Positions 26,725 through 56,834 of a stretch of DNA of 64,000 nucleotides are shown here, piece after piece. The position numbers were made by a program, and so were the translations under genes. This stretch comes from an uncultured Pseudomonadales bacterium (GTDB lineage: Bacteria; Patescibacteriota; Microgenomatia; UBA1400; PJMF01), in contig CAZSJW010000001.1 in the NCBI GenBank assembly GCA_964607285.1, forward strand, positions 2,514-66,513. Reading direction: 5' to 3'. Every line of letters begins with the position of its first letter. Position 1 is the stretch's first letter. Under the pieces are notes generated by a model. The model had not been told where the DNA came from. It ran no database searches and saw only the letters and a program-made list of their open reading frames with translations.

Positions 26725-26841
26725 AGTTGTTTATCCCTATTGTTTGGGAACTATCCAGATACCAGCGTAGCATACGCAACAGAGCTTGAGAAGCCAACAC
26801 TGACTTGCGGAAACGGTGATAAATCAGCATACTGTGAGCAG

Positions 26842-34920: not shown

Positions 34921-36153
34921 TTAGTAATTGACGTGCAAGTAGAAGGTGCTGATGTCTGAGTCTTTGTGCTTTACCTTGACGTATCTGAGTTGGCCTCCTC
35001 CACAAGAAATGCTACCGCGGAATAGCTCACCGTCCTTGACTGCCTTCACCGTGTAGTCTTGAGATTTGCTGGCCATGTCAATGCCCGTATGTGGAGCACC
35101 ACCATAAGCTCGGCGAACACGAGCATAGTACGTCATCCCGTACCCCTGGTTTATTTTTGCAGGATCACTGAGCGGCCACTCCCAGTCTCCGCCGAAACCG
35201 AACGCACCATCTGGGTCATTGTTCCAAGCCGCTGAAATTGGTTTTAGGTATCCTGCAGGGTTATAGTTTACGCCGCCGCGAACAACTTCAAAATGCAAAT
35301 GGGTGCCATTTGAACAAGTTGATGCTCCTACAATAATAGAAGCAATTTTATCTCCTTGGGAGACATTTCCTACTTTAGACTCACTTCCTTTTCCAGCAAT
35401 GATAGATTGGATAGCGTTTAACTCAGCTAAGGTTTTCTCAAGCTCTGCCTGGTACTTTGCTTCGTTGTTGCGGGTTTCGGTAAGAAGAAACTGCTGCTCT
35501 TGTTTTTGTTTCCCTAAGGCTCCGCGCTCCACTTCGAGTTTAGTTTGTTTAGTTTGTACTTCAGTTTGTTTCTTTTCTTTTAAGGCTTTTTGATCGTCAT
35601 ACTCTATGCGTTGGCTTTCAGCTTTACCCATGGCAAGTGCTGTTTGTTGACCCGCTTCTGTGACATACTTATACTGTGAGACTAGATGATTAAATGAACC
35701 TGAGGATGCTAATAAGACTAATGGGGTGGTTTGGGCAGTTTTGTACTGACTGCGAATGCGATCAATCAGCACAGTGCTTAGGCGGTCCAGCGAAACGTTG
35801 AGACCACTGATGCGAGTAGTGAGTTCACGAATTTCTCTCTCCAGTTGCTCAATTTCAGTTTCCAGCTGGTTGATTTCCAGTTGCTGGATAGTGATTTTAC
35901 CGTTGATGATACTAATGGTATTAGTGAGGGTAACCTTTTGTGTTCCTATTTCTTGCAGTTTTGATTGCAAGCAGCTTTTTTTATCATCAATACACCGTAA
36001 GTATTCATCTTCGACCTGCAGGTTTTTATCACAAGCTATGGTGCCACAATCGTCTGCAGCGTACAGGGGGGTAGTACGAATTTGGAAAATAATACCAGCG
36101 CAAACGCCAATAGCGACTATGGCTGTAAAAAATTTGAGAAAAGTAGTGTGCAT
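34921..36153 (-). CDS. Coiled-coil M23 (LytM-type) metallopeptidase with permuted motif order; EnvC/PcsB-like partner of FtsEX
   Basis: N-terminal TM/signal, ~200-aa heptad-rich region, then GTHLHFEV (HxH) about 70 aa before PHTGID (HxxxD), ending in FYLHVNY. ATG at 36153 preferred over the TTG at 36201. Confidence 0.85.
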   Translation of the reverse strand: MHTTFLKFFTAIVAIGVCAGIIFQIRTTPLYAADDCGTIACDKNLQVEDEYLRCIDDKKSCLQSKLQEIGTQKVTLTNTISIINGKITIQQLEINQLETEIEQLEREIRELTTRISGLNVSLDRLSTVLIDRIRSQYKTAQTTPLVLLASSGSFNHLVSQYKYVTEAGQQTALAMGKAESQRIEYDDQKALKEKKQTEVQTKQTKLEVERGALGKQKQEQQFLLTETRNNEAKYQAELEKTLAELNAIQSIIAGKGSESKVGNVSQGDKIASIIVGASTCSNGTHLHFEVVRGGVNYNPAGYLKPISAAWNNDPDGAFGFGGDWEWPLSDPAKINQGYGMTYYARVRRAYGGAPHTGIDMASKSQDYTVKAVKDGELFRGSISCGGGQLRYVKVKHKDSDISTFYLHVNY

Positions 36154-36216
36154 GCGACAAGCATTACAGTACCAGAAATATGCTGTTTTGTCAGTCCACA
36201 ACTTGAGGAAGTGTCG

Positions 36217-37083
36217 CTATCTGAGATATCTGCGTACTGCTACTAAGCCTGCAATGCCACCTAGTATCATGCCCGCCCCATTGCCAATGCCGATTTGTGT
36301 AGCCAGAAACAAGGGAGGAACAGGGAGTACTGTAATTTCACCCAAAAATTCTTGTATCCATGGTGAGGCATAGAGAAGCATGGTGTACATGAGAGTCCAC
36401 CCCACAAGAGAACCTAGTATGCCGTATAGCATCCCTTCCCACACGAATGGGCTTTGGACATATCCTTTGGTTGCACCAATAATTCTCATGATGGTGATGG
36501 CCCTTCGTTGATTGGCTGCTTTGATTGCAATCAATACCATGACTGTGAGAAAAGAAATAACAGCTAGCACGCCAACAATGGCGAGTCCAATCGCCCGTAT
36601 AGATGAGGTCCAGCGATTGAGTGCGTCCACTATGTCTTGTTGGTACACAACATCTTCAACACCAGGTGTTTTTTCTAGGTCAGCTTTTATTTGAGGCAGA
36701 TCGGCGATTTTCACGGCTGAAACTTCGATGCTGGCGGGCAAAATGTCTGCAGTTACCAGCTCAAGGAGCAGAGGATCGTCTTTATTTTCTGCTTTGTACA
36801 ACTCAAGTGCTTCTTCTTGAGTTACCACTGTTGTGTCCTTCACGTAAGGCTTTTCTTGCATGGATGTGGCAAGTGTTGTGATATCAGTATCAGGTGTTTT
36901 TAGTTCAAAAAAAGCAATGATTTGTGGTCTAGCTTCAAAATACTGCAAGACTACATGTCCCCCCGTTACTACCAGCGAAAAAATATAGGCCACAAAAAAA
37001 GTCAGTGAAACCATCATGATTGAAACTAATGCCTGGTACGGCGTACGACGCATTGTGGTCAGTGCAGTAGACAGTGATTTCAT
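36217..37083 (-). CDS. ftsX: Cell division permease-like protein FtsX
   Basis: 288 aa. TM1, large extracellular loop, three C-terminal TMs with RIIGATKGYVQSPFVWEG. ATGA overlap with ftsE. Confidence 0.9.
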   Translation of the reverse strand: MKSLSTALTTMRRTPYQALVSIMMVSLTFFVAYIFSLVVTGGHVVLQYFEARPQIIAFFELKTPDTDITTLATSMQEKPYVKDTTVVTQEEALELYKAENKDDPLLLELVTADILPASIEVSAVKIADLPQIKADLEKTPGVEDVVYQQDIVDALNRWTSSIRAIGLAIVGVLAVISFLTVMVLIAIKAANQRRAITIMRIIGATKGYVQSPFVWEGMLYGILGSLVGWTLMYTMLLYASPWIQEFLGEITVLPVPPLFLATQIGIGNGAGMILGGIAGLVAVRRYLR

Positions 37084-38066
37084 GCCAGCTCCTCGTCATC
37101 TAAGCTCTCTACTTTCACTGTAACAAGAGTACTTTTTTTATCGGGATTTTTATCAGTTGTCTGTTGTTTTTTGTTACTGGATTTTTCTTTTTCTTCGCCT
37201 GACTTTGATTCTTCTTCATGCTCTGCAGACTTCGTGATTTTTTCTTTGGAGTCTGTTGATTCGGATTTTTTGCTACCAAACCAACGTGCAAAGAAGCTAG
37301 GTTTTTTTTCTTTGCTTTCGATCACTTTGCTAGTATCAATCTCTTTTTTCTCTTCAGCCTGAATTAGTTTTTTATTATTGGGAGATTTTGGGGGTTCAGA
37401 TGTATGTGTATCTAGAGTAATTTTACCATCTTCCAGATTGATTCGCCGTTTGTCTGCAAACAATGAAATGATATGCGGGTCGTGTGTAGCAAAAAGAATG
37501 GTAGTACCAAGTTTATTTATGGTGTGTAATAAATGAGCGATGTTGGTGGCGGTATCTCTATCAAGATTGCCTGTTGGTTCATCGGCGCAAATAACAGTAG
37601 GTGCTATTGCCAACGCTCGGGCAATACTAATTCGCTGTGCTTCACCACCAGATAATTGGCGAGGGAACACTTCTGATTTTCCAGTGAGTTGCACCAGTTT
37701 AAGCAAATCTGTCACCCGTTCTTCTATCTCACTTTGTGGCTTACCTATGATGTAGAGGGGAAGCGCAATGTTTTCCCAAACATTGAGTTCAGGTAATAGT
37801 CGGTAGTCTTGAAAGACCACGCCAATTTTACGACGATGGTGGTGAATTTCACGCTCGCGAATATCGGAGAGTGCTTTACCCTGGAACTCGATAGCCCCAC
37901 TTGTGGGTTCATACTCCCTGGTGAGCAGTCTCATGAGTGTAGTTTTGCCACTACCTGAAGGGCCAGTTATGAACACCATTTCACCTGGTTCTATAGAAAA
38001 GGAAACGTCAAAAACACCAGTAGAGTCGGGCAAAAAGGCTTTTGTGACTGAGCTAAACGTTATCAT
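37080..38066 (-). CDS. ftsE: Cell division ATP-binding protein FtsE with ~100-aa Lys/Glu/Ser-rich C-terminal extension
   Basis: Walker [10 protein letters not shown], signature LSGGEAQR, Walker [13 protein letters not shown], then the low-complexity tail [15 protein letters not shown]...[12 protein letters not shown]. Confidence 0.9.
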
Positions 38067-41991: not shown

Positions 41992-42622
41992 CGACAGTAA
42001 TGTTCTCTAACACGTCCATACCAGAAAGTACTTTACCAAATACCGCATGTTTGCCATCTAGCCACGGGGTTGCCTCGTACGTTATGAAAAACTGACTGCC
42101 ACCAGTGTTAGCACCTGCATTTGCCATAGATAGAATACCTGGACCATTGTGGGTAAGGGTAGGGTCAAACTCATCAGCAATTGTGTATCCTGGTCCGCCA
42201 CTGCCCCACATGCCTTGTTTTGTAGCATCTTTTGTCAGCGGATCGCCAACTTGGGCCATAAAATCTGGTATTACTCGGTGGAAAACAATGCCATTGTAGT
42301 ATTTTTCAGATACTAAATTAACAAAGTTGGCTGTGGTGAGGGGTGCTTTATCTCGATACAGCTCTACAGTGATGCTACCTTTGCTTGTTTCGATTACTGC
42401 TTCGGTAGCTGCTATCTCTTTAAAATCTGCAAGTGTTTTCTGTGTCGGCATAGTTGGTTCCTCTTGATTTGCTACTGGATTTGTACTGATTGTATTAGAT
42501 TTTTGAGTACCAAGATCCACGTCATCAGTCGTGGTTTGTGTGGGGAGACACGCACTGAGTACGAGTGAAGCTGTGATCAAGCTGATACCTACTACTAAGG
42601 AGGTTTGGGATCTACTGAGCAT
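41960..42622 (-). CDS. Cyclophilin-type peptidyl-prolyl isomerase, lipoprotein
   Basis: Lipobox LVLSAC. Cyclophilin blocks YNGIVFHRVIPDFMAQVGDP and GILSMANAGANTGGSQFFIT. Confidence 0.88.
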   Translation of the reverse strand: MLSRSQTSLVVGISLITASLVLSACLPTQTTTDDVDLGTQKSNTISTNPVANQEEPTMPTQKTLADFKEIAATEAVIETSKGSITVELYRDKAPLTTANFVNLVSEKYYNGIVFHRVIPDFMAQVGDPLTKDATKQGMWGSGGPGYTIADEFDPTLTHNGPGILSMANAGANTGGSQFFITYEATPWLDGKHAVFGKVLSGMDVLENITVGDTITTITLK

Positions 42623-42658
42623 AGGTCACCATGCTACAATAGATCGGAGGATTTCGCA

Positions 42659-43387
42659 ATGAGTTTGACGATCACTTTGTTACACGGTTGGGCGGTAAGT
42701 CCCGAGAATCAGTCCAAGTGGGTACAGTTTCGGGCATGTTTGAAGAGAAAAGGCTTTGATACGCGATTTTTACCAATACCTGGACTTTCTTCACCACTAG
42801 ATACAGCATGGGGTTTACAAGAATATGTACTCTGGTTGCATGCGCAACTTAAACACGGTAAAAAAACCATTTTGTTAGGCCATTCTTTCGGTGGACAAAT
42901 CGTATCACGCTTTGCAGCTTTGTATCCAGAAAAAGTATCCGCAGTTATTTTAATTGATAGCGCTGGAATTCGTGATAGATCTATTGCTGTGGTGATAAAG
43001 AGGAGCGTATTCAAATGTATAGCAACTCTAGGAAAGAAATTGACAAACTCGCCACAACTTCGACACATCATCTACAAATTAGCCCGAGAAAAAGATTACT
43101 TTGAAGCGTCACCAGTGTTGCGTAGGACCATGGCAGCGGTGCTTGCAGATGAAGTTACCTCAGATTTGCCAAAGATTTCGGCACCTACCTGTATCATATG
43201 GGGGGAACACGATCGAGTCACCCCTCCCAAATTGGCTTATCAATTCAACGCCCTCATCCCCAACTCGCAACTACACATCATAACAGGTGCTCGGCACTCT
43301 CCTCAGTTTTCACATCCTACAACTGTTGCTGAGTATATTGTTGCTTTCTTACAAGCTGAGTTTCTTGTGCCTGGAGGCAAATCATGA
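42659..43387 (+). CDS. Alpha/beta-fold hydrolase
   Basis: SD GGAGGA before the ATG at 42659. HG oxyanion LLHGW, nucleophile elbow GHSFGG, C-terminal GARHSP His. Confidence 0.8.
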   Translation: MSLTITLLHGWAVSPENQSKWVQFRACLKRKGFDTRFLPIPGLSSPLDTAWGLQEYVLWLHAQLKHGKKTILLGHSFGGQIVSRFAALYPEKVSAVILIDSAGIRDRSIAVVIKRSVFKCIATLGKKLTNSPQLRHIIYKLAREKDYFEASPVLRRTMAAVLADEVTSDLPKISAPTCIIWGEHDRVTPPKLAYQFNALIPNSQLHIITGARHSPQFSHPTTVAEYIVAFLQAEFLVPGGKS

Positions 43388-44886
43388 ACTGGTTTGTCAT
43401 ATGTATCGCTACTATCTATGGTATTTCGGCTCTAGTCCGTTTGGTGCGGTGGGTGGCAATTTTACAGCAAAAGGAGTATAGATTTGATAGAGTTCGAGTT
43501 TTTTTATTGTCATCTGAAGGCAATGCAGAATTTCTACGCTTGCTTCCCTCAACTTCAGACTTTTCCAGGACAGGATTCAAGCGTCCAAAGTTGACGCAAA
43601 GAGCCATAGTCTCTGCCTTGCTCAGCTTTGGAGAGTTATTGACTCTAATTTTCACTCCAATTATTTGGTACCTCAGACTGGAGTACGTCGATTCAGTTGG
43701 TGCAATTTTGTTGCTAAGTATCTGGTTACTATTTATTTTAGTGAGTATTCCTTTGCTAGTATTATTGACTGCAGTGCCGACAAGTTTGGTTGCTCAGTAT
43801 CAGACTATGGTCATGTGCCGTTCAGCTGCCAAGCTACTGGACTTTCATACACCTTTAGTGATCGGAATAACAGGGAGTTATGGCAAATCGTCGACAAAAC
43901 AGCTACTAGCTCATGTGTTGAGCAAAAAGTACCGTGTTTTTGCCACACCTCGCTCATTTAATACTCGCTACTCTGTAGCACAAAGTATTGTCATAGGCTA
44001 TAGGGGTGAGGAAATTGTCATTCTAGAGTATGGAGCGTATGGTCCAGGTGAAATTCGCAAACTGGTATCTGACTTACCAGCAAACTGGGCAGTTATTACT
44101 GGCTTTGCACCACAACATTTGGGACTGTTTGGATCAGAGGATGCAATCCTGAGGGCGAAAGCCGAACTACTTGAAGCGTTACCGCCCGATGGTAAGGCAT
44201 TTGTAAATGGTGATGATAGTGGTGTGCAGAGAATTGTTTCTGTAGCTACTATTGAGCCATCTGTGCCTGTTTTGGAGTTTTCGGTTTATTCTGTTCCTGC
44301 TCTCAAGAAGACAAAGCTTTCAAGTAATGGTTCACTGGAGATTCCATATACAGGAAAGCTTATTACAACGAACTTAGTAGGTAAGCATTATGTACAAACT
44401 ATTGCAGGTGTTTGGGCTATTGCTGCTGAGCTAGGTATGAGTGAAAAAAGCATACTTTCTCAACTCAAAAGTTTTGTTCCCACCGATACATTTATGCAAA
44501 GGTATGTGACAAGAAATGCAGTAACAATTCTCGATGATGGTGGTACTAGTAATCCTAGAGGGTTTGCTGCAGCACTAGAAGTTCTGGAGCAACTGGAGTT
44601 CGCTCAAAAAATTCTCATAACTCCAGGCATTGTGGATTTAGGGAATCAGTCCAATTCCATTCATCTAGAACTTGCTAAGCAGGCATGGAGTGTGGGGGTG
44701 AGTGAGGTCTTGTATGTTGGTGAGAATGGCAAAGGCGAGTTTAGTACTGTTTTTAGTCCAAACAGAGTTTTATCTGAACGCTCAGCTGTGCAAACTGCAC
44801 TGACTACAATGCCATCGGGGTCGGTACTGTTGATTGAAGGTAGATTACCTGGCTGGTGTGAGGATATACTCAAACAGCTACTATGA
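43384..44886 (+). CDS. Mur-ligase-family (MurF-like) protein with ~145-aa N-terminal membrane domain
   Basis: 3-4 hydrophobic segments, then ATP site GITGSYGKSSTKQLLAHVL, EYGAYGPGEI, AVITGFAPQHLGLFGSEDAILRAKAELLEALPPDGKAFVNGDD. ATGA overlap with the upstream gene. Confidence 0.8.
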   Translation: MNWFVICIATIYGISALVRLVRWVAILQQKEYRFDRVRVFLLSSEGNAEFLRLLPSTSDFSRTGFKRPKLTQRAIVSALLSFGELLTLIFTPIIWYLRLEYVDSVGAILLLSIWLLFILVSIPLLVLLTAVPTSLVAQYQTMVMCRSAAKLLDFHTPLVIGITGSYGKSSTKQLLAHVLSKKYRVFATPRSFNTRYSVAQSIVIGYRGEEIVILEYGAYGPGEIRKLVSDLPANWAVITGFAPQHLGLFGSEDAILRAKAELLEALPPDGKAFVNGDDSGVQRIVSVATIEPSVPVLEFSVYSVPALKKTKLSSNGSLEIPYTGKLITTNLVGKHYVQTIAGVWAIAAELGMSEKSILSQLKSFVPTDTFMQRYVTRNAVTILDDGGTSNPRGFAAALEVLEQLEFAQKILITPGIVDLGNQSNSIHLELAKQAWSVGVSEVLYVGENGKGEFSTVFSPNRVLSERSAVQTALTTMPSGSVLLIEGRLPGWCEDILKQLL

Positions 44887-46157
44887 AACCGATATTCCTA
44901 AGTTTGGGTTCAAACTATTCACTTTCATATGCGTACACTGCGTTACTGCAACTAGTTCGCCCTAACCTGGCAGCACTCGCGCAAGCTGGTCGTGAAATCG
45001 AACAGCTCTTTGGTGGTCGCCCAGTATTTTACTACAAGGGCCGTGATGCTATTGAGCAGGCACTTCTAGCAATTCAACGAAAGCACACTCAAAAACTTAC
45101 AGTCTTTACTCAGGCAGCTAGTTGTTATGCAATTGAGGAAGCGATTACAAGAGCAGGAGCGCAACCAGTCTATGTGGATGTTGGCAAGCACAAGTTGAAC
45201 ATGACAGTAAAAACTTTGGAAGCCACCTATGTGCAGAGTGGTAGACCAAGGAATGCAGTCGTCATAGTGCAACACTTGTTGGGTTATCCTGCAGATATGG
45301 TTAGGCTACAAGAGTGGTGTCAGCAAAACTCTGTGCTTTTAATCGAAGATGTAGCGCAATCGTTTGGTGCACTGTCTAGTGAAAGTGCAATGGTTGGAAC
45401 ATATGGAGATGTTGTTGTTGGTTCATTTGGCCGTGATAAAGTGCTTGATTGTGTCAATGGAGGATTTACATTAGTGCGCAATCAAAAGTGTTCACCTCAA
45501 AGTAAAGAGCTTAAGAACCTTGTGAGTTCACGTCAGTTGTTTCTTAATTTACTGTATCCCGTTGTAACAGTATTAATCAGGAATTTGTATGGTTTTTTTG
45601 GCCTTGGAAGAGTGATCTTTTATATTGCTAAGCAAGTAGGTGTGCTTCGCTCTCCTATTCCATCACCGTTGCCAGTGAGCAGTGCCTTACCTGCGGAGTT
45701 TGGTCAGTTACTGAAAAATCAGATGAGTGATTTGTCCGCACAACTTGCACATCGCAGACAGATTGCACAAATGTACTTCTCACAACTGTCAGCATGGATT
45801 TCGGTACTGCATATTTCGGAGCGCATGTTGACAAAAGCAGCTTGTTTACGGGTCCCAGTGTTTGTTCCAGATGTTCACGCATTCATTCTTTTTTTGAGAT
45901 CCCACAATATTCATGGTAGTGATAGATGGTATAGGTCTGCTGTAGATATGGGCACATTTTCATTTCCCACTGTGTATCAGGCAGGAAGTTGTCCAAATGC
46001 TGAGTTTCTGACTAAGCATCTTTGTAATTTGCCAACACACAGAGCGATCAGTGTGGCTCAGGCTGAGGAATTGGCGCGTCTCACGAGATCATTCTTAAGC
46101 AGACCAGAAGTGCTTCTTTGGTATAAAGAAGCGTTGCAACAGGATATAGCACTATGA
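44883..46157 (+). CDS. DegT/DnrJ/EryC1/StrS-like PLP-dependent enzyme
   Basis: LIEDVAQSFGA and GSFGRDKVL (putative PLP Lys) blocks. Overlaps both neighbours by 4 nt. Confidence 0.65.
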   Translation: MKPIFLSLGSNYSLSYAYTALLQLVRPNLAALAQAGREIEQLFGGRPVFYYKGRDAIEQALLAIQRKHTQKLTVFTQAASCYAIEEAITRAGAQPVYVDVGKHKLNMTVKTLEATYVQSGRPRNAVVIVQHLLGYPADMVRLQEWCQQNSVLLIEDVAQSFGALSSESAMVGTYGDVVVGSFGRDKVLDCVNGGFTLVRNQKCSPQSKELKNLVSSRQLFLNLLYPVVTVLIRNLYGFFGLGRVIFYIAKQVGVLRSPIPSPLPVSSALPAEFGQLLKNQMSDLSAQLAHRRQIAQMYFSQLSAWISVLHISERMLTKAACLRVPVFVPDVHAFILFLRSHNIHGSDRWYRSAVDMGTFSFPTVYQAGSCPNAEFLTKHLCNLPTHRAISVAQAEELARLTRSFLSRPEVLLWYKEALQQDIAL

Positions 46158-47188
46158 CACCCACTGGACTAATTGTTGCCTTAGAAACTTCTCAAGATGT
46201 ATGGGAACAAGCAGTATCTCTCTTTCCAGAGGCAAATTTTTTGCAATCTTGGAACTGGGGTGTATTTGAAGAACGCTTAGGCAAACAAGTGTTTCGATTG
46301 AAAGTCACCCACGATGGTGTCTTTGTTGGATTATGCCAAGCGGTATATGAGCCTGCTCGACGTGGCTCGTATTTGGCGGTTGCAGGTGGACCACTTTGTG
46401 ATTGGGTACAATCCCCCCAAGTACTTGCAGAAATGATTTCAGAGTTGAAGCGGATAGGTAGGGAGTTGGGATGCGTTTTCATCAGACTACGTCCACAACA
46501 AATTAACTCGCCAGCAATTGTAGCTGTCGCAGAGCGTTTAGGTTTACACAAAGCACCTATGCATCTTACGGCTGATCTGACACTGCAGCTGGATTTGACT
46601 CAGACTCTCGAAGAAATACTGAGTGCAATGCGTAAAAATACTCGCGCAGCTATTAGAAAAGCAGAGAGTATGGGAATAACTGTAAACCAAACTATGGACC
46701 CTGCTGCAATTCATAATTTTTACACTGAGCAAGTACAAGTAGCTCGCCGACACAGGTTTGTACCCTTTACAGAAAAATTTCTCACAGAACAGTTCTCAGC
46801 GTTTGCACAAGATCATCAGGTAGCATTATTTCAGTCATATAGCGGTGCAGATCAGCTAGCTGCCGCGTTTGTTATATTTTACAACGGGGAAGCGGTGTAT
46901 CACTACGGTGTTTCAACCGAAGCAAATGCTAAGTTGCCTGGGAGTTATGCCTGCCAATGGGCGGCAATCCAAGAAGCAAAGCTGCGTGGATGTACGCGCT
47001 ATAACTTTTGGGGAATTGCTCCTGAAGAAGAAAGACAACATCGATTTGCAGGTGTTTCATTATTTAAGCGGGGTTTTGGCGGCCAGGAAGTAGCTTACTT
47101 ACCAGCAAGGGACATAGCACTGTCGTGGAAATACCAGGGTACGTATTGGTTTGAGAGAGTTCGCAGCAAGCTGAGGAAACTTGACTAA
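46154..47188 (+). CDS. FemAB/MurM-family peptidoglycan aminoacyltransferase-like protein
   Basis: FLQSWNWGVFEERLG, MRKNTRAAIRKAE, YHYGVSTE, QWAAIQEAKLRGCTRYNFWGI resemble FemX/MurM family blocks. Confidence 0.75.
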   Translation: MTPTGLIVALETSQDVWEQAVSLFPEANFLQSWNWGVFEERLGKQVFRLKVTHDGVFVGLCQAVYEPARRGSYLAVAGGPLCDWVQSPQVLAEMISELKRIGRELGCVFIRLRPQQINSPAIVAVAERLGLHKAPMHLTADLTLQLDLTQTLEEILSAMRKNTRAAIRKAESMGITVNQTMDPAAIHNFYTEQVQVARRHRFVPFTEKFLTEQFSAFAQDHQVALFQSYSGADQLAAAFVIFYNGEAVYHYGVSTEANAKLPGSYACQWAAIQEAKLRGCTRYNFWGIAPEEERQHRFAGVSLFKRGFGGQEVAYLPARDIALSWKYQGTYWFERVRSKLRKLD

Positions 47189-48592
47189 TTACATTCTCTC
47201 TATAGCATAGGTTTCTAAATACTTCATGAAAATTGCTGGTGAGTCTTCCAGGAAAAACTGTTGGAATTCTTGATATGTTTCAGTCCGTTCTTGTTGATTG
47301 AAGCTCTGCCTACCTTTTTCTAACAGATTGTCTATACGAATGTTTTTATAGCCCGTAAAATTTGTGCTCTGTTCAGAATGCCACAGAGCGTATTGATCTG
47401 GATCAGAAGGTGATTCTTGGCCAACAAGCAAGACCTCAAATGAGCTAACGTCAGGAAAACTCGCAATTCGCACTTGAACGGCTATGTCCAAATTGCCGCA
47501 ATCCGCCTTATTTTCTACTTTTGAGTCAGATTGACACGTAGTGACTGCCTTATCTCCGATTGCTTCCCACTGTGTTTTTATAGCCTCTGCCTGGGCTGCG
47601 AAGAGGGTCGTGGTAGTGAGTTCAAATTGCAATGGTTTTCCTGGAATTGGGTCCATCAGACGTTCAACTGCCCGATCAGGATCTTTGTCATAAGATTTTA
47701 TACTTTCTAAGTACGCCCAGGAGTCCACACTGATTGGTCCCAATGCTCGAACATCACTAGCGGGCTTATCCAGCGCATAGGCTAATCCTTGTCTAATATT
47801 TTTTTGAAATTGTGAGTTTCTAATGTTGAAAAAAACTGCTAGATATCGGTCTGTGTGGAGGGTTGGGGTAACAGAAACAGTAGGCCACTGAAAGATATCA
47901 TGTTTTCTCTGTAAGTCAGGAATTGCATCAATCTCTCCCATTTTAAATGCGGTAACAGCATCTTCTTCTGTCAGGTAAAAGCGGTATATGTGTCTTGTGT
48001 CAGGACCGTCTATTGTGATTTGTTTTAATTTTGTGCCTTGCGTACTGTAGTTGGTAATTTTATTTTCGCCTAAGCCAACTTTATTTTGCCTGGTGAAAAA
48101 CCAAAATCGTGGTTCTGAAACTGTGCGAAACACTGGCTGAGACACCAAAGTTGGAAATGGTGCGTATGCGTCTGGTAGTTTGAAAACAATGTCATTCGGA
48201 GTGAGAATTGTTTCAACGTCCTTGAAAGCGTACTGTAAATCAGAGGGTTCCAGTGGTTTTCCATCATTCCAAAACAGGTTCTGTTTGAGCACAAAGCGAT
48301 ATGTTTTTCCATCATTTTCTACTGTCCACCGCTCTGCAAGTGCAGGAACTGTGGAGCCATCAGGTTCAATAGTAGTTAGCCCAACACTGAGTCGATTTGT
48401 AATGACACTTGGCAATGTGTCCAAGGTATATTCACCAACTATGCCGATATACTTGCGCTGACCTTTTTCTAGATTTGAAACAAATGCGGGCAGGAATAAT
48501 GAAAAAAGAACAATTGCGCTAACAAGCGATAGAGTAAAAACTAAACCATGTTTTTTTATGTAAGCAGTAAGATACCAATAAAATTTACGCAT
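47189..48592 (-). CDS. ABC transporter substrate-binding protein, family 5 (peptide/nickel type), TM-anchored
   Basis: 467 aa, N-terminal TM. SBP_bac_5-like blocks ALAERWTVENDGKTYRFVLK and FTGYKNIRIDNLLEKGR. No cognate permease or ATPase nearby. Confidence 0.75.
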   Translation of the reverse strand: MRKFYWYLTAYIKKHGLVFTLSLVSAIVLFSLFLPAFVSNLEKGQRKYIGIVGEYTLDTLPSVITNRLSVGLTTIEPDGSTVPALAERWTVENDGKTYRFVLKQNLFWNDGKPLEPSDLQYAFKDVETILTPNDIVFKLPDAYAPFPTLVSQPVFRTVSEPRFWFFTRQNKVGLGENKITNYSTQGTKLKQITIDGPDTRHIYRFYLTEEDAVTAFKMGEIDAIPDLQRKHDIFQWPTVSVTPTLHTDRYLAVFFNIRNSQFQKNIRQGLAYALDKPASDVRALGPISVDSWAYLESIKSYDKDPDRAVERLMDPIPGKPLQFELTTTTLFAAQAEAIKTQWEAIGDKAVTTCQSDSKVENKADCGNLDIAVQVRIASFPDVSSFEVLLVGQESPSDPDQYALWHSEQSTNFTGYKNIRIDNLLEKGRQSFNQQERTETYQEFQQFFLEDSPAIFMKYLETYAIERM

Positions 48593-52096: not shown

Positions 52097-52170
52097 CGGG
52101 GAGTAGTTCAGATGGCTAGAATGCTCGCATGGGGTGCGAGTGGTCGCAGGTTCGAGTCCTGTCTCCCCGA
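52097..52170 (+). tRNA. tRNA-Pro (anticodon GGG)
   Basis: Hand-folded cloverleaf. Acceptor CGGGGAG/CTCCCCG, D-arm with GG, anticodon stem CTCGC/GCGAG, loop AT-GGG-GT, 5-nt variable loop, T-arm GCAGG-TTCGAGT-CCTGT, discriminator A. CCA not encoded. Confidence 0.9.
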
Positions 52171-53831
52171 CATTCAAGGACAGAGGGTAGTTTTGCAATG
52201 GTTTCGAACTTAGGATTCCATTGGTGAGTCAATACTTTTTTGTCCTTTATAGTGAAGTTCAAAAAGACCATTCGAATGATACTGTCTGTTGCTAGGTGAT
52301 TATCGCTTGTTTTCAGAGTAGAAACGATGTTTTTGATAAAGTTCGAAAAGTCTGTGTAAGACATCACTTTTTCTTTGAGTAAAGATTGAGCATCAACTCG
52401 CTGGCTCTTTACCTGTGCCAGTTTAGCTTCTAATTGCTCGATTTCATCCCTGGCTTGGAGTATTTTTTCTCTTGCTACCTTGATTGACTTGTCATCACCC
52501 TCAAGTCTCACCACGATAAGCTGTTGGTCTGAAATAATTGTTTCCAGGTCGTTTATTTGTTTGGAAATAGAGCGTTGGTCGCTTTCCAACTCTTTGGCAG
52601 AGCTAACTAATTGGCGTTTGGCATCTGCCACGTACTGGTTGTAGGCTTTTTCGTCTATACCGATGCCACCTGCTAATACCTCATAAACATACTCAAAAAT
52701 AACTTTTGCCCTGATTTCTCGTAAACCCTTCACCTTGTGAGAATAACAACCGCCAGTGGAACACTTTATTCGTAGATAAGTGATAAGTGACTCTGGTTTA
52801 TTTTTATTGAGATATGTTGTCATCAGGTTACCGCAGTACCCACACACCACCATCTGGTCTAGCAGTGGAGTTGCTTTGTCCTGAGCCTTCTTATAGCCCC
52901 TTTTACCGTCCAGAATGTTTCGCAAGCGTAAGTAGTCCAGATATGACATCGCAGGTGTAAATAAGTGGTCGAACTTAGTCAGGTCAACCATATTTTTTCC
53001 ATACACGTAGTAGCCAGTATAGGAGGGGTCGAGAAACATTGCTGAGACGAGTTGTTTCGTCATCCTGGTTTTTTCGCCATTTTGACTGTAGTTGTTTTCA
53101 TTGAGGTACGATGCAATCACATCTTGTGATTTGCCTTCGATACCCATCTGAAACGCTTGCTGGATGAGTTCAAAGTTTTTCCCATCTTTACGTTGGCGTT
53201 TATTGATTACTTTGTAACCTCGCAGAGCCTTGTTGCCGATGGCTTTGCCTTCACCGATAATGTTTTCATTGCCTCTTGAAACGTTTATGGAGAGGTTATC
53301 ACTGTAGGCTTTGGCGAGTAGAAACTGTAAGCCAAGGGTCATCAGTCCATTCGGGTCACGCTGAAAAGAAAACTGTGGAAACTTGAGGTCTTTGATAATA
53401 CCTCGGTCGATTAGGTCAATAATCTCACCTGCATCCTTCATATTTCTCCCAAGGCGGTCTGGATGCCAGCAGATGATAGCGTTATACGATTTCTTAGACT
53501 TGATTTCGTCCATCATTTCTTCAAATACCTCACGGTTAGCCGATTTTCGGGCTGATTTTTCTTCCTTGAGAACATCTACCACCTTCAAACCCTCACGCTT
53601 GGCTAGAGCTTTACTGTCTTTGATTTGGTCTGGAATGGAGCGTTCTTGACGTTCTACTTGCTTGCCATCTTGGTTTTTCTTTTTACCCTTAGTAGATTTA
53701 CGAGCGTAAATGACATACACAGGTGGCTTGTCATCAGGGAGTGGTTTTCCCGCCTTTTCTAAGCGGTCAAAAACGATGCTTTGAGCTATTTCAAAGACTT
53801 GCTGTTTATATTCTGCATTGGTGTCTGGCAT
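52116..53831 (-). CDS. Large serine recombinase (phage-integrase type)
   Basis: N-terminal resolvase domain VIYARKSTKG...SIPDQ...DRLGRN. Recombinase domain. Zn-ribbon CGYCGN...KCSTGGC. Coiled coil. The last ~18 codons run antisense through the 3' part of tRNA-Pro. Confidence 0.88.
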   Translation of the reverse strand: MPDTNAEYKQQVFEIAQSIVFDRLEKAGKPLPDDKPPVYVIYARKSTKGKKKNQDGKQVERQERSIPDQIKDSKALAKREGLKVVDVLKEEKSARKSANREVFEEMMDEIKSKKSYNAIICWHPDRLGRNMKDAGEIIDLIDRGIIKDLKFPQFSFQRDPNGLMTLGLQFLLAKAYSDNLSINVSRGNENIIGEGKAIGNKALRGYKVINKRQRKDGKNFELIQQAFQMGIEGKSQDVIASYLNENNYSQNGEKTRMTKQLVSAMFLDPSYTGYYVYGKNMVDLTKFDHLFTPAMSYLDYLRLRNILDGKRGYKKAQDKATPLLDQMVVCGYCGNLMTTYLNKNKPESLITYLRIKCSTGGCYSHKVKGLREIRAKVIFEYVYEVLAGGIGIDEKAYNQYVADAKRQLVSSAKELESDQRSISKQINDLETIISDQQLIVVRLEGDDKSIKVAREKILQARDEIEQLEAKLAQVKSQRVDAQSLLKEKVMSYTDFSNFIKNIVSTLKTSDNHLATDSIIRMVFLNFTIKDKKVLTHQWNPKFETIAKLPSVLECRGDRTRTCDHSHPMRAF

Positions 53832-53881
53832 TATTTTTATCTCTTGAGTTATCTACCAGTATTATAGCTTTAGATACAAAA

Positions 53882-53904
53882 AGAGCCGAGGGTGAGTCGG
53901 CTCT
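53882..53904. terminator. Hairpin AGAGCCGA-N7-TCGGCTCT just upstream of the recombinase gene
   Basis: 8-bp perfect stem flanked by an A-run on the left and a T-rich run on the right. Could terminate in either direction. Confidence 0.4.
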
Positions 53905-54269
53905 TTACTTTGCTGTGTTCTAGCCTTTAGGATTTACTTGTCATTGACAGCAACCTTTTGTTTGACGCCTGGCTAAGCTTCATCTCTAAATCTGCATTTT
54001 GTTGCCAGTTTGTGCGGTCTTCAAAATTGATTGGCGCTAAAAGCTTATCAGAATATGCCTTAGCTTCTGGAGTTCTAACACCATCAACCACTGGCTCTTG
54101 ACCTGTTTCTTCAAAATATAATTGGTCTGCTCCAGAGGAAGGTTTTGATGACTTTGATCAAGCGGCTGCTCATTATCATTCTGTTGGGAACTTTATTGTT
54201 GTATTTGTTAATAGTTTCGATGACACGGATGTAGACTCATATGTTGCTTGCACAAGACTTCGACACGAA

Positions 54270-54863
54270 ATGAACCATGCGGGAAGCGTAGTTAAGCATC
54301 GAGCATATCCTAACGACCAGGGAGGGAAAGACTATAAACAGTATAGGGTTGGAGCGAGAATTGACCCAAAAGAACAGGGTGGTGCAGTACTTGGTCTGGT
54401 CTTTGATGAAGGACACCATTCGGTTGAGGATAAGCTTGACTCATTCTCATTTTCTAAATACAGAGGAATGGATCAATTTCTATCTGGCTTACCTGATTTG
54501 AATGAGGTCTTTCCAGGAGCTGATACTAAACTGAGAGGATTATTTTTAGATGCACTTATACGGAGCGAGGTAAGCCCTGATCAGATGCTCATAAGCTATC
54601 GCACAGTACACAGAGATGGTACTGCTTTTCATTTGCTAGATTATGCTGAAAGGTACACCGATTACGAAAAACTAATGGTGAAACTGTATACTAGCAATCC
54701 CAAACTGTACCAGTTAGCCGTGGACTGTATATATGGAGACAATATGATTGCTTTTGCCAAGGAGATCGATACAACATTTGGATCAGGTTATTTTCGAAGA
54801 TTAATGGAAGCAAAGGACAGACAAGCCGCCATCAAATTGTATGAAGAATTGGACACACTATGA
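54270..54863 (+). CDS. Hypothetical protein; annotated ATG sits inside an HEMNH (HExxH) motif
   Basis: 197-aa ORF. The same frame is open back to 54102 (..SYVACTRLRHEMNHAG..) without any ATG/GTG/TTG. Confidence 0.55.
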   Translation: MNHAGSVVKHRAYPNDQGGKDYKQYRVGARIDPKEQGGAVLGLVFDEGHHSVEDKLDSFSFSKYRGMDQFLSGLPDLNEVFPGADTKLRGLFLDALIRSEVSPDQMLISYRTVHRDGTAFHLLDYAERYTDYEKLMVKLYTSNPKLYQLAVDCIYGDNMIAFAKEIDTTFGSGYFRRLMEAKDRQAAIKLYEELDTL

Positions 54864-54972
54864 ACAAAAGTGAAGTACTAGCAATCAGCACAAGTTCCAA
54901 AATGGGTAATCAGATGGGTTCTATCGTGCTAAAATTAAACAGCAAAGATGCTAAATGCAGATCAGGTGATGT

Positions 54973-56376
54973 ATGGAAATTGCACAATTTCTTTTAGGTC
55001 ATGAGCAGGGTGGGAATGAAGAGATCTTCTTAAACAAGGTTGCAGCCATAACTGGCATTAAGCCTTTGAAACTCTCAGACAACCCTGCCTGGCTCGCCGA
55101 TACGTTTAAACAGTACTCCGATCGACTTAAGTGGAGAAAAAATAGAAATACTGATCACCAGTATATTCATGATGAAGGAATGCATCCTTGTGCATTTAGT
55201 CCTGTTTTGCCTAATAGTTTGTTGCGATCACATACTTTTGCAATTACGGAGCAAATGATAGCGTTTGTGGAAGTGTTTGAGGCGTATGTGCAAAGAGTAC
55301 CAACTATCACTGAACTAGAAATCATTGGACTGCTTAGCACTAAGGATACTGTTCAGTCAAAATTTTCCAACACAGCAATAAATGCCATAAATGCTTTGTA
55401 CTATTCGCTCCCCGATTCTTTTTCTGAAGAGAGTGGTTTGGCTTCAATGTTTACTAACAATCGAATCATTAATCGGGCAATAGGATCCTTTATTGATACG
55501 CATGTATCGGGTAATGCACTCAGCATTGGTGAGATTTGCTCTGGTCGAAGAGCTGCCAAGTGGACCGAGATTGCAAGTAAACTGCCCAATAAATCAGTCA
55601 GTATTCATCTTTCAGATTTTGTTGCACCAACACTTCCTGACCTTACGCAGGAATCTAATGTCACAGCAGTTACCTCTGAGCAGTATTCGCTTTTGGATGA
55701 ACTACCATTTTTACCTGACAGTGAAAAAAGAGATGTGCATTTAGCTACATATGGGTTTGATAGTGTTTGGTCAGAGCATGACGCTCGTTATCATAAACAG
55801 AATGGCAAATGGTATCGTGAATTTAGTAGAGTTAAGGTACTTGATACGCACCCGCGAAAAGACCAAATGATAGCAGCTCTGAGGACTGGTACTGCATTTC
55901 CTGGAATGCAACTATCTGATTTTGGCAGTGTGTTTGTTGAATCTGGCATAGAAGAGGTGGACATGAGTATGGAAGCTAATGGGTCGATAATTGCTGATGA
56001 ACTAGAAGACAGCTCACGAATTGAGCTAAGCTACCCTGGTGGTATGATCCATCACATACAGGCAGCATTTCAGCGGCAGCTTAAACAAGATGGTATCTTT
56101 ATCATTGGTGACACTGCAGCTATCAGCAATGGTGAGAGGTTTTCGACTAAACAAAGCTATGTGAGTGGCGTTGCAGCACGGTATAAAAGGGAAGACTATC
56201 TATTGGCAAAAAGAATCCTCGATGAATTTGGGTTCACTGCTGATATATATCCCCTCAATGATTTTGTGACTGGGGTGCTCGGTGAGGGCTGGAAATCAGA
56301 GGCAACTACAAATGAACATGATCTAATTACAGAATCACTCACTAGTGTAATAATGGTAGTGAAAAAAAAGAGTTAG
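54973..56376 (+). CDS. Hypothetical 467-aa protein (weak resemblance to class I SAM-methyltransferase fold)
   Basis: Long ORF. LSIGEICSGRRAAKW and IFIIGDTA loosely resemble methyltransferase motif I and post-I strands. Not verified. Confidence 0.6.
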   Translation: MEIAQFLLGHEQGGNEEIFLNKVAAITGIKPLKLSDNPAWLADTFKQYSDRLKWRKNRNTDHQYIHDEGMHPCAFSPVLPNSLLRSHTFAITEQMIAFVEVFEAYVQRVPTITELEIIGLLSTKDTVQSKFSNTAINAINALYYSLPDSFSEESGLASMFTNNRIINRAIGSFIDTHVSGNALSIGEICSGRRAAKWTEIASKLPNKSVSIHLSDFVAPTLPDLTQESNVTAVTSEQYSLLDELPFLPDSEKRDVHLATYGFDSVWSEHDARYHKQNGKWYREFSRVKVLDTHPRKDQMIAALRTGTAFPGMQLSDFGSVFVESGIEEVDMSMEANGSIIADELEDSSRIELSYPGGMIHHIQAAFQRQLKQDGIFIIGDTAAISNGERFSTKQSYVSGVAARYKREDYLLAKRILDEFGFTADIYPLNDFVTGVLGEGWKSEATTNEHDLITESLTSVIMVVKKKS

Positions 56377-56380
56377 CTAG

Positions 56381-56653
56381 TTAGTCTCGGAGCTCAAAAA
56401 AAAGGCCGTTGATAGTGAGACCGTTGGGATGCACTTGCAGAGTCCCTTTGTTGCCAGATCCAATCTGTTTTGTTCCGACAGATCCATTCTTTTCACCTCC
56501 ACAAAAAATGCTGCCCCCATACGGTAAGTGTTTCTTCAACTCTTTATCTATAATCTTTTGCTCTTCGTACTGCTTTTTATCTTCATTCCAGACGAATACC
56601 TTACTGCGTCCTCCAAACACTATCTCAGCAATTCTGGAACCAAGTTCTCCCAT
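56381..56653 (-). CDS. Hypothetical 90-aa protein
   Basis: ORF preceded by AAGGA and TATAGT/TATACT-like boxes. Convergent with 54973..56376, with a 4-nt gap. Confidence 0.5.
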   Translation of the reverse strand: MGELGSRIAEIVFGGRSKVFVWNEDKKQYEEQKIIDKELKKHLPYGGSIFCGGEKNGSVGTKQIGSGNKGTLQVHPNGLTINGLFFELRD

Positions 56654-56834
56654 ATGTATCCTTTAGTATACTATACTACTTACCACTCTTGCAGCACAAT
56701 AATTTCACAAGCAAAAAGTGGTGATTGTATACTCACATGAAATGGACAACTACCACTGCTCATTATGATTAAAGAAATACTTTTTGACATGTATGGGGTG
56801 ATTATTGATATCAGAAACTGATACAATCAAGACA

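Follow-up and report, generated by a model that had tools for sequence, protein, structure and literature searches.

The operon at positions 42659-47188 of the plus strand opens with genes for an α/β-hydrolase and a Mur ligase and continues with those for a PLP enzyme of the DegT fold and a transferase of the FemAB type, which raises the question of what step in cell-wall synthesis such a set of enzymes could serve. It lies within a 64-kb stretch of DNA, the whole of which is referred to here as the window. The operon is the CPR version of a widespread, undescribed cell-wall module. The reading favored here, with a probability of roughly 0.6, is that it encodes the final cytoplasmic steps of peptidoglycan-precursor synthesis in their Patescibacteria form, with the ligase carrying out the MurF step while tethered to the membrane.

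The ORF list places the four plus-strand frames at 42605/42659-43387, 43384-44886 (500 aa), 44883-46157 (424 aa) and 46154-47188 (344 aa). For the first of these the ATG at 42659 is preferred as the start because a GGAGGA precedes it by 7 nt and the length of homologs is 232-244 aa. All three junctions (TCATGAAC, CTATGAAA and CTATGACA) are ATGA stop/start overlaps of 4 nt, and the translational coupling put forward in the original prediction is accepted. The domains it assigned are likewise recovered by Pfam HMMs (Abhydrolase_1, 2.4e-22; Mur_ligase_M, 1.1e-25; DegT_DnrJ_EryC1, 1.9e-32; FemAB, 9.1e-32), Mur_ligase_C being weak on the window ligase (20.9 bits against a cutoff of 28.4), and the catalytic residues are kept in all four proteins. 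The flanks within the window contain FtsE, FtsX and an M23 peptidase, that is, division and wall-remodelling genes. Neither mraY nor other mur genes adjoin the operon, and apart from the ligase no mur, mraY or ddl gene was found within the 64-kb window.

The module centers on the second gene. Its larger part (43834-44886, plus strand), which comprises the central and C-terminal domains, is by HMM, sequence and fold a predicted MurF-type ATP-dependent amide ligase. The motifs GITGSYGKSSTK, EYGAYGPGEI and ITGFAPQHLGLFGS quoted earlier are all found in the translation, and the P-loop G161-K168, E215, H245, K259, D385 and N390 are conserved family-wide, K259 being what we take to be the carbamylated-lysine position of Mur ligases. 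The murF model TIGR01143 matches with 6.4e-54, aligning residues 155-485 to model positions 72-404. The C-terminal region is covered by this alignment, which runs up to position 404 of 418, as well as by the AF2 model and Foldseek, and precomputed PF02875 matches exist in many homologs. The score of 183.5 bits lies below the curated TIGR01143 cutoff of 288.6, as do the 224-263 bits of relatives. The best solved matches by sequence are MurF structures (3zl8, 1gg4 and 4cvk), and MurF accounts for all of the top 10 Foldseek hits (E~1e-21). The family has more than 4,400 database matches in many phyla, usually annotated as "MurF"; no published description of a ligase family with such a membrane domain was found in the literature, in agreement with the earlier view that no characterised system corresponds to this one.

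The remainder of the ligase, aa 1-150 (43384-43833, plus strand), is a membrane domain of three predicted TM helices with a conserved loop. The N-terminal domain of MurF is absent from the window protein, as the TIGR01143 alignment begins only at model position 72 (protein residue 155), and in other family members it begins at positions 62-69. Three hydrophobic stretches (1-27, 73-97 and 99-139) occupy the first ~150 residues, and the AF2 model (pLDDT 92) has long helices at 2-29, 72-98 and 104-155; the exchange of the MurF N-domain for a membrane domain, as originally proposed, is thus borne out. Across the family the domain is conserved, with 3-5 helices. In 28 CPR members R22, W23, Q28-R33, R36, R67, P68, T71 and R73 are invariant, and Q28, Y32, R36, T71, R73 and A148 are conserved in 51 non-CPR members too, so that on residue conservation the domain is judged homologous between the two groups. 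The conserved loop consists of Q28, Y32, R36, K66-R67-P68, T71 and R73; with its basic and aromatic residues, this loop is probably exposed on the cytoplasmic side, next to the catalytic core. Pfam has no match to the domain, and an exhaustive phmmer search encountered it only N-terminally in proteins of ~470-520 aa; as far as such searches reach, it is exclusive to the ligase family.

The gene upstream encodes an α/β-fold serine hydrolase of 242 aa (42659-43387, plus strand). Of 82 loci, 75 contain its cluster, nearly always immediately 5' of the ligase, and across nearly all examined phyla the membrane ligase type has the hydrolase as an obligate companion. HGW 9-11, S76 (GHSxGG), D146-Y147, D185 and H213 are invariant in 76 family members; the window protein has a GxSxG-type nucleophile elbow, GHSFGG, at S76 and a Ser-Asp-His triad (S76/D185/H213). 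Among solved proteins it comes closest to the metagenomic carboxylesterase 5jd6 (3.8e-20). The hydrolase looks like an active serine esterase or peptidase, and one guess is that it would edit or recycle the precursor or a side-product.

The third gene (44883-46157, plus strand) encodes a DegT/DnrJ/EryC1-fold PLP-dependent enzyme of 424 aa belonging to a Patescibacteria-specific subfamily. It exceeds the Pfam cutoff (113.3 bits against 19.8) and falls far below the cutoffs of all curated equivalogs, the best being PseC (84 bits against 423). D156, S181, R184, K186 (SFGRDK) and L383-P384-T385(-H386) are invariant, which includes the PLP lysine K186 and the aspartate D156. The AF2 model (pLDDT 95) retrieves nucleotide-sugar aminotransferases as top Foldseek matches (4lc3, 4qgr, PglE and perosamine synthase). 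Helices 216-309 of the model fall outside the Pfam-matched region and may be a family-specific insertion. Among the 192 homologs found, all named ones are from Patescibacteria and none is a fusion. For 24 of the 120 listed homologs the longest contig equals in length that of a listed ligase homolog, which suggests that the two genes share a contig.

The fourth gene (46154-47188, plus strand; 344 aa) encodes a predicted FemX/MurM-like aminoacyl-tRNA-dependent transferase of the FemAB family (Pfam FemAB, 110.8 bits against a cutoff of 24). Of the solved structures, S. aureus FemA (1lrz) and FemX (6snr) match it best. F304-K305 of the FKxGFGG motif, which aligns with the FKKGY motif of S. aureus FemA, is invariant among 13 CPR sequences, and R111 and R164 are invariant as well. 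The FemX model NF047883 gives 43 bits against a cutoff of 500, and the top NCBIfam match is the exopolysaccharide-associated PEP-CTERM FemAB family, far below cutoff. In CPR loci the gene is always 3' of the DegT-like gene. A FemAB-type 'pentaglycine bridge' protein has been reported for most OD1 genomes.

The arrangement itself is informative. In a survey of 82 loci, the order hydrolase-ligase-DegT-FemAB was found in 17 loci spread over several classes of Patescibacteria, with a median intergenic distance of -4 at the hydrolase-ligase and ligase-DegT junctions, and three further Microgenomates contigs carry the same order. Since the same genes recur in the same order in these 17 loci, the arrangement is not due to chance; the original prediction had staked itself on co-occurrence in relatives, and the four genes do stay together throughout Patescibacteria. 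Outside Patescibacteria, Ddl (identified by NF002528 with 339 bits against a cutoff of 262) lies 3' of the ligase in 51 loci, and the two states, DegT/FemAB in 17 loci, all Patescibacteria, versus Ddl in 51, do not co-occur in the sample. Catalytic and C-domain residues are common to Ddl-linked and DegT-linked ligases, the sole systematic difference being position 427, where the CPR ligases retain the canonical MurF histidine. A neighbor-joining tree groups the ligases mostly by phylum and places the DegT/FemAB-linked CPR sequences all in one clade.

Several of these modules are associated with other genes of wall synthesis and division. For example, the Poribacteria order is RsmH-FtsL-FtsI-MurE-[hydrolase-ligase-Ddl]-MraY-MurD-FtsW-MurG-MurC, in which MurE, MraY, MurD, FtsW, MurG and MurC all exceed curated cutoffs; this dcw cluster has no second murF, and the membrane ligase is its sole fourth Mur ligase, occupying the murF slot between murE and mraY. 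In the Woesebacteria locus L066 the operon runs on as hydrolase-ligase-DegT-FemAB-MraY-FtsW-MurG-(223 aa)-FtsA-FtsZ. Likewise, MurA lies upstream of the module in Chloroflexota; in loci of Peribacteria and Altimarinota the operon has FtsA on its 3' side, and in Staskawiczbacteria it has a PBP on its 5' side. The cultured Pseudalkalibacillus has hydrolase-ligase-Ddl-Peptidase_M15-PBP outside any dcw cluster; this module looks accessory, and the ligase family is therefore not housekeeping everywhere.

The Ddl pairing in 51 loci, the murF slot in Poribacteria and the continuation of L066 into mraY-ftsW-murG are among the grounds for assigning the MurF step to the membrane ligase. The residues shared by Ddl-linked and DegT-linked ligases, the tree, the single murF per Parcubacteria genome, the division and wall-remodelling genes in the window flanks and the company of murF with a Fem-family gene in the vanI cluster add to them. 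By this assignment the ligase would activate the C-terminal carboxylate of a MurNAc-tripeptide with ATP and then add the terminal dipeptide. The three-helix membrane domain would keep it at the membrane beside MraY, and the conserved loop may replace the UDP-binding domain in holding the diphosphate end of the substrate, whose carrier would be UDP or undecaprenyl. The FemAB-like enzyme most likely transfers an amino acid from aminoacyl-tRNA onto the precursor, by analogy with FemX and MurM, and the DegT-like PLP aminotransferase probably makes or modifies an amine-bearing substrate for the fourth or the second gene product. We infer that the window ligase is the only MurF of the organism, but a canonical murF or a ddl could lie elsewhere in the genome. 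Some observations speak against the MurF step: the ligase falls short of the murF cutoff and is without the UDP-binding domain of canonical MurF, the operon lies away from mraY and mur genes in the window, and the Pseudalkalibacillus module looks accessory. The sugar-aminotransferase fold of the third enzyme is likewise left unexplained by this step, and a partner forming a keto-sugar is absent from the operon.

An alternative, close to the original prediction, is an accessory pathway apart from core peptidoglycan synthesis. In it the MurF-derived ligase would act with the Fem-type transferase to assemble a peptide on a membrane-bound glycan or polymer bearing a DegT-made amino sugar, with a normal MurF encoded elsewhere. 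The exchange of the UDP-binding domain for a membrane domain, the score below the murF cutoff and the Pseudalkalibacillus module agree with it, as do the amino sugars that are normal products of DegT-fold enzymes and the top, though far sub-cutoff, match of the FemAB-like protein to the PEP-CTERM exopolysaccharide family. It is, however, hard to reconcile with the tight and wide ligase-Ddl linkage, the murF slot in dcw clusters, the L066 gene order, a ligase tree that mostly tracks phyla and the single murF per genome listed among core genes in a published Parcubacteria survey. Moreover, neither the ORF list nor Pfam gives a glycosyltransferase, flippase or sugar dehydratase inside the operon. 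Such a pathway is quite unlikely, and accessory glycan decoration is probably not the role of the operon. The original prediction keeps its domains, membrane swap, coupling, cell-wall role and lack of a characterised match; on the Ddl and dcw-gene linkage, the tree and the one murF per genome, its dedicated extra pathway decorating a lipid-linked intermediate probably gives way to a plain MurF.

That the two gene arrangements do not co-occur in the sample could also mean that the DegT-like and FemAB-like enzymes jointly replace Ddl, whose place they occupy, and perhaps alanine racemase, supplying the dipeptide via aminoacyl-tRNA and PLP rather than an ATP-grasp enzyme. DhpH of dehydrophos biosynthesis, which has both a PLP domain and a FemX-like domain for tRNA-dependent peptide formation, counts in favor of this. 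Further, four loci within the CPR clade of ligases (L011, L028, L077 and L079) have a seryl-tRNA synthetase gene immediately 5' of the hydrolase, and two of them (L028 and L079) a class-II Asp/Lys/Asn-type synthetase upstream; the PDB matches include 9wqw, a FemAB-fold 'aminoacyl-tRNA-dependent peptide synthase'. Searches by tblastn and a Ddl HMM that covered the window and 22 CPR or CPR-like loci detected no Ddl, but it may sit beyond the ±10 kb examined per locus. Similarly, the 202-gene core of Parcubacteria includes murA, B, E, F and G and omits Ddl (COG1181) and Alr (COG0787), but the table is neutral because DegT (COG0399) and FemAB (COG2348) are missing as well. Against the replacement, the ligase C-domain residues identical in both groups fit an unchanged D-Ala-D-Ala substrate, whose formation from tRNA-borne L-amino acids would require an unknown epimerisation; the DegT-like fold resembles nucleotide-sugar aminotransferases rather than amino-acid enzymes; and L028 has two FemAB paralogs, as is typical of cross-bridge builders. 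Replacement of Ddl seems unlikely. A variant of the MurF step that differs in the substrate carrier alone has the ligase act after MraY, adding the dipeptide to undecaprenyl-diphospho-MurNAc-tripeptide (lipid I/II) as the normal route or as repair, with the hydrolase trimming aberrant stems. The missing UDP domain would suit this, and the basic residues of the putative cytoplasmic loop a diphosphate at the membrane surface; MurT (NCBIfam NF052464; PDB 7q8e), the sole Mur-ligase homolog named lipid II isoglutaminyl synthase, is among the fold matches. Yet the basic loop could bind the diphosphate of UDP equally well, the ligase precedes mraY in gene order as expected for an enzyme of a soluble substrate, and the membrane-domain motifs are retained in the L014 ligase despite loss of TM1. 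Action on lipid I/II is improbable. Patescibacteria might even dispense with the classical Ddl route, a FemAB-type, aminoacyl-tRNA-dependent peptide synthase and the DegT-fold enzyme making the terminal dipeptide for a membrane MurF that works on a lipid-linked precursor. This is very doubtful; if true, the final stage of precursor synthesis would be rewired and the stem might not end in D-Ala-D-Ala.

With the MurF step as the preferred reading, the operon may be set beside known systems. The ligase shares with canonical MurF the central ATPase domain, a putative C-terminal domain and, in relatives, the pairing with Ddl and the position between murE and mraY. It differs in that the UDP-binding N-domain (~70 residues) is swapped for a family-specific membrane domain of 3-5 helices, an α/β-hydrolase gene nearly always lies upstream and the CPR members are not paired with Ddl. 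MurT of the MurT/GatD system, a Mur-ligase homolog named for lipid II, is among the weaker sequence and fold matches; it is not known to have the canonical N-domain or to be an integral membrane protein. The operon has no GatD or glutaminase gene, the ligase no DUF1727 C-domain, and the window protein is much closer to the MurF model (183 bits) than to that of MurT (24.9 bits against a cutoff of 800).

The fourth protein resembles FemX, MurM and FemABX in its Pfam score above cutoff, FK catalytic motif and setting among peptidoglycan precursor genes; its identity to characterised members is low, and it has a constant DegT-like partner, which no characterised Fem system needs. That partner agrees with ArnB, PglE, PseC and perosamine synthase in fold, in the PLP-binding lysine and aspartate and in the C-terminal LPxH motif, but its gene has no sugar dehydratase or dehydrogenase partner and stands inside a peptidoglycan precursor operon.

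Van-type clusters with a murF and a Fem-family gene of their own are also comparable. Neither a D-Ala-D-Lac or D-Ala-D-Ser ligase nor VanX/Y, VanRS or VanH is encoded in the operon or its immediate flanks; there are no Ddl-family sequences anywhere in the window, and Peptidase_M15 (the VanX/VanY family) was seen only in the Pseudalkalibacillus version, whose module resembles Van clusters in bearing it together with a PBP. In the vanI cluster of Desulfitobacterium (vanX-murF-vanK-vanW-vanI), murF stands alongside a Fem-family gene and one for a ligase or peptidase of Ddl type (PMC4229326), which is the point of resemblance. A membrane domain or an α/β-hydrolase has not been reported for the vanI-cluster MurF, and both are present here. 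Rather than resembling an accessory resistance island, the CPR operon is conserved and largely tracks phylogeny.

The operon consists of four plus-strand genes, which encode an α/β-hydrolase (42659-43387; Abhydrolase_1, 2.4e-22), a Mur ligase (43384-44886; Mur_ligase_M, 1.1e-25), a DegT/DnrJ/EryC1 enzyme (44883-46157; HMM, 1.9e-32) and a FemAB-family protein (46154-47188; HMM, 9.1e-32), with an ATGA stop/start overlap at every junction. A GGAGGA box 7 nt 5' of the ATG at 42659 favours this codon as the start of the first gene. The original prediction of an overlapping operon of these four families was thus borne out in all its details by the ORFs, the junction sequences, the HMM scans and the AF2 helices. 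A promoter and terminator scan over 42300-47500 gave counts at or below the shuffled expectation. The window has a Microgenomates-type Patescibacteria aspect (ribosomal protein cluster, SecY, FtsEX, PrfB, RNase Y, and RecA), and besides the ligase of the operon no mur, mraY or ddl gene was seen within the window.

Judging by their conserved residues, all four products look catalytically competent. In the hydrolase, the HGW motif, S76 in GHSxGG, D185, and H213 are invariant across 76 sequences, and its closest solved relative is the metagenomic carboxylesterase 5jd6. The DegT-like enzyme retains D156, S181, K186 (SFGRDK), and a C-terminal LPTH motif, all of which are invariant; its AF2 model (pLDDT 95) resembles nucleotide-sugar aminotransferases, and the modelled helices 216-309, which lie outside the Pfam match, may be a family-specific insertion. 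Likewise, the Fem catalytic F-K motif (F304-K305) is kept in the FemAB-like protein.

The ligase combines a MurF core with an unusual N-terminus. Its best NCBIfam model is murF TIGR01143, with a score of 183 bits that is below the cutoff of 288.6, and the alignment begins only at model position 72. The first ~150 residues contain three hydrophobic stretches, and the confident AF2 model (pLDDT 92, pTM 0.88) has long helices at 2-29, 72-98, and 104-155 and, after them, a MurF-like core. The ten best PDB matches of this model by Foldseek are all MurF, which is likewise the best sequence match among solved structures. CapB/PgsB, cyanophycin synthetase, Mpl, MurT, and the pseudomurein ligases were also considered as the family of the ligase, and all scored far under MurF. 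The P-loop, E215, H245, K259, and D385/N390 show little or no variation; we take K259 to correspond to the lysine that is carbamylated in Mur ligases.

The N-terminal residues R22, W23, Q28-Q29-K30-E31-Y32-R33, R36, R67-P68, T71, and R73 are invariant in 28 members from the candidate phyla radiation (CPR), and, as read from the sequence, this region does more than anchor the enzyme. The positive-inside rule would place both the catalytic core and the basic loop (30-71) in the cytoplasm. The ligase of one Patescibacteria record (L014, 9962-11335) has lost TM1 and most of the hydrophobicity, yet both motifs (LQQEEYDLDR and VWTPKA) persist in it, which speaks for an independent role of the loop; the gene adjoins the hydrolase gene and is divergent from MraY-FtsW-MurG-FtsA.

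The family is large and widespread. The window ligase as query gave more than 1,000 matches; among the 120 matches listed, all were of 453-543 aa with 38-60% identity (the window protein itself aside), the named ones were all from Patescibacteria, and the existing labels were MurF, Mur ligase family protein or hypothetical. Among GTDB species genomes, a scan yielded 80 ligase loci, most of them outside Patescibacteria, in Clostridia and other Bacillota, Chloroflexota, Poribacteria, Bacteroidales, Melainabacteria, and the cultured Amedibacillus and Pseudalkalibacillus. Nearly all of the non-CPR ligases have 3-5 hydrophobic helices ahead of the P-loop, and Q28, Y32, R36, T71, R73, and A148 are common to CPR and non-CPR ligases; hence, the homology of the membrane domain extends through the whole family. 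A profile search with the non-CPR ligases retrieved more than 4,400 proteins, for which the RefSeq name is MurF. An exhaustive phmmer search with residues 1-150 found the domain only at the N-terminus of proteins of ~470-520 aa, the exceptions being fragments and two repeat-protein artefacts.

A neighbour-joining tree of the catalytic cores, built without support values, grouped the sequences mostly by phylum, a pattern that fits a vertically inherited core gene. The DegT/FemAB-linked CPR sequences formed one clade, sister to a clade with all the Ddl-linked (D-Ala-D-Ala ligase) sequences, and the L014 ligase fell in the non-CPR clade. Among the records of loci L006, L007, L011, L012, and L013 and of the protein homologs P0021 and P0039, some are named 'uncultured Pseudomonadales bacterium' despite plainly Patescibacteria gene content and ligase clade, and the record of locus L010 is named 'Methylococcaceae bacterium'; such names on these MAG records look like taxonomy mislabels.

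The gene neighbourhoods were surveyed by calling and clustering the ORFs of 82 loci, ±10 kb per locus. The α/β-hydrolase cluster was present in 75 of the 82, nearly always immediately 5' of the ligase, with a median gap of -4 nt in CPR versus 8 nt elsewhere. In 51 non-CPR loci the ligase is followed 3' by Ddl, a ~400-aa protein (NF002528, 339 bits; cutoff 262). Eight Poribacteria loci carry this trio within the division/cell-wall (dcw) cluster, in the order RsmH-FtsL-FtsI-MurE-[hydrolase-ligase-Ddl]-MraY-MurD-FtsW-MurG-MurC; in one of them (L022), MurE, MraY, MurD, FtsW, MurG, and MurC each exceed the curated cutoff and the locus has no other murF. In Chloroflexota, MurA lies close upstream of the module, and in Dysgonomonas the arrangement is hydrolase-ligase-Fic-Ddl. 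In L022 (11337-12545), L015 (11357-12583) and 51 other loci, the Ddl encoded beside the membrane MurF has ~390-420 aa, which is longer than a typical Ddl, and the HMM matches that of L015 in two stretches, suggesting an insertion.

In 17 Patescibacteria loci, whose records are titled as Pacebacteria, Colwellbacteria, Staskawiczbacteria, Paceibacterota, Peribacteria, Altimarinota, and Woesebacteria, the ligase is followed by the DegT-like and FemAB-like genes and not by Ddl. The four genes therefore do co-occur in relatives with their order kept, as the original prediction had implied. Mere conserved synteny was rejected as the cause of this linkage, as the flanks are wholly different in Peribacteria, Altimarinota, Parcubacteria, and Woesebacteria. 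In the Woesebacteria locus L066 the operon runs into MraY-FtsW-MurG-(223 aa)-FtsA-FtsZ, FtsA lies 3' of the operon in Peribacteria and Altimarinota, and a PBP lies 5' of it in Staskawiczbacteria. An ATP-grasp ORF just 5' of the L066 operon was considered as a cryptic Ddl and rejected for want of significant Ddl similarity; having no homolog in any other locus or the window, it is not a conserved partner.

Five further Microgenomates-type contigs carry the same four genes with the same flanks as the window. Moreover, 24 of the 120 DegT-like homologs listed match a listed ligase homolog in the length of the longest contig, which suggests shared contigs. The conserved 5' neighbourhood of this type (window 34921-38066; L001, L003, L088, and L089) comprises a peptidase-like gene of M23 or C39 type (M23 in the window), FtsX, FtsE, a ~190-220-aa unknown protein, PrfB, DUF4012, and a cyclophilin PPIase. 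Since several of these genes concern division or wall remodelling, the neighbourhood as a whole may form a cell-envelope supercluster.

The ligase is probably a membrane-anchored MurF and the sole MurF in these lineages. It would add the dipeptide to the peptidoglycan precursor, working on the cytoplasmic side of the membrane. The core table of a Parcubacteria survey has a single murF, with one locus tag per genome. The original prediction of a dedicated extra pathway on a lipid-linked intermediate was altered by the linkage to Ddl, the dcw position in Poribacteria and the run into MraY-FtsW-MurG in L066. The FemAB-like enzyme, most simply, is predicted to act as a FemX/MurM, adding an amino acid from an aminoacyl-tRNA; for most OD1 genomes, a 'pentaglycine bridge' protein is already reported. 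One locus in the survey has two FemAB paralogs, namely Staskawiczbacteria L028 (8235-13629); one of them separates the hydrolase from the ligase, the other comes after the DegT-like gene, and a 155-aa ORF intervenes.

The data leave room for the DegT-like and FemAB-like enzymes to supply the dipeptide in place of Ddl. The pair occupies the position of Ddl and never occurs together with it in this sample, and tblastn and an HMM built from 53 Ddl sequences detected no Ddl in either the window or the 22 CPR and CPR-like loci examined. Against such a replacement, the DegT-like fold is that of a sugar aminotransferase, dipeptide supply by FemAB/DegT poses a problem of stereochemistry, and the pocket of the ligase is unchanged. 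The catalytic and C-domain residues are alike in Ddl-linked and DegT/FemAB-linked ligases, and the only systematic difference, at position 427 (H vs N), gives no support for an altered substrate, the CPR group having the canonical MurF histidine; hence, the chemistry of the ligase is probably the same in both groups. Ddl and Alr are missing from the Parcubacteria core table, but so are DegT, FemAB, and the hydrolase, which leaves the table neutral on the matter. Four loci from the clade of CPR ligases (L011 754-1992; L028 4743-7485; L077 7863-9128; L079 3060-7528) have a seryl-tRNA synthetase gene immediately 5' of the hydrolase, which would suit the replacement, and in L028 and L079 a class-II Asp/Lys/Asn-type tRNA synthetase lies just ahead of it; these synthetases may hint at the aminoacyl-tRNA of the FemAB-like enzyme or merely reflect local synteny.

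The substrate of the membrane MurF may be either lipid-linked or UDP-linked. The loss of the UDP-binding domain and an analogy with MurT would point to a lipid carrier, whereas neither the order of the genes nor L014, with its lost TM1, favours it.

Further features of the window lie outside the operon. At 9136-15036, six successive minus-strand genes code for polytopic membrane paralogs of ~260-280 aa, with an ABC ATPase gene (10737-11759) among them; by their translations and a Pfam ABC2_membrane_6 match of an edge gene in the related locus L001, they are read as an unusually expanded set of ABC-2-type permeases. Two very large polytopic membrane proteins of 1128 and 760 aa (17022-20408 and 26704-28986), without a Pfam match, lie on either side of a GT1 glycosyltransferase (20365-21720); they resemble uncharacterised machinery for envelope glycans. 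A secreted-looking protein of 189 aa (23563-24132) has two near-identical ~70-residue repeats (PPAGYCTGGVAWPVPPHSEIPNENPCPNVSGNHVVDVGGELNTHPSWQLAYNDYYARGWDTGATFWFEP) and no Pfam match. A tRNA-Pro gene (52097-52171, plus strand) overlaps by ~55 nt with the 3' end of a large serine recombinase gene (52116-53831, minus strand; Resolvase and Recombinase domains), which is followed by several ORFs without a Pfam match. In relatives (L003), a short ORF alone separates RecA from DUF2130 and a UvrD-like helicase; hence, the ~5.6 kb stretch (52097-57407) looks like a small element integrated at the tRNA gene.

The components are members of known families, and together they probably serve peptidoglycan precursor synthesis. 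MurF is an essential and well-studied antibiotic target, and the textbook view is of a soluble three-domain enzyme. If the reading as a membrane MurF is true, the last cytoplasmic precursor step has a second, membrane-tethered form, which annotation pipelines tag as plain "MurF". Attention is due to the wider ligase family more than to the window locus: in this large, phylogenetically broad family the UDP-binding domain has been swapped for a conserved membrane domain, with an α/β-hydrolase nearly always alongside. Among the recovered loci, the hydrolase-ligase core is common to CPR, Chloroflexota, Bacillota, Bacteroidales, Poribacteria, and a few other lineages, which makes it a candidate synteny marker in the study of CPR ancestry. 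To our knowledge, the cell-wall chemistry of Patescibacteria is essentially unknown, and the DegT-like and FemAB-like genes at the place of Ddl offer a testable lead on how CPR stem peptides are finished, branched or given an unconventional end. No account of a membrane-anchored MurF, its hydrolase partnership or the CPR operon was found in the searchable literature, and the family is unmentioned in a survey of Mur ligase chimeras (PMC10214165) and one of Mur-domain families (PMC11915815).

The ligase family is not housekeeping in every lineage. For example, the cultured Bacillaceae member Pseudalkalibacillus sp. SCS-8 (CP143541.1; L086 9232-15965) carries hydrolase-ligase-Ddl (404 aa)-Peptidase_M15 (VanX/VanY family)-class B PBP away from any dcw cluster. 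This module looks like a self-contained, van-like accessory set for alternative precursor synthesis and cross-linking, possibly related to glycopeptide or β-lactam tolerance. A published precedent for murF lying with a Fem-family gene is the vanI cluster (vanX-murF-vanK-vanW-vanI; PMC4229326).
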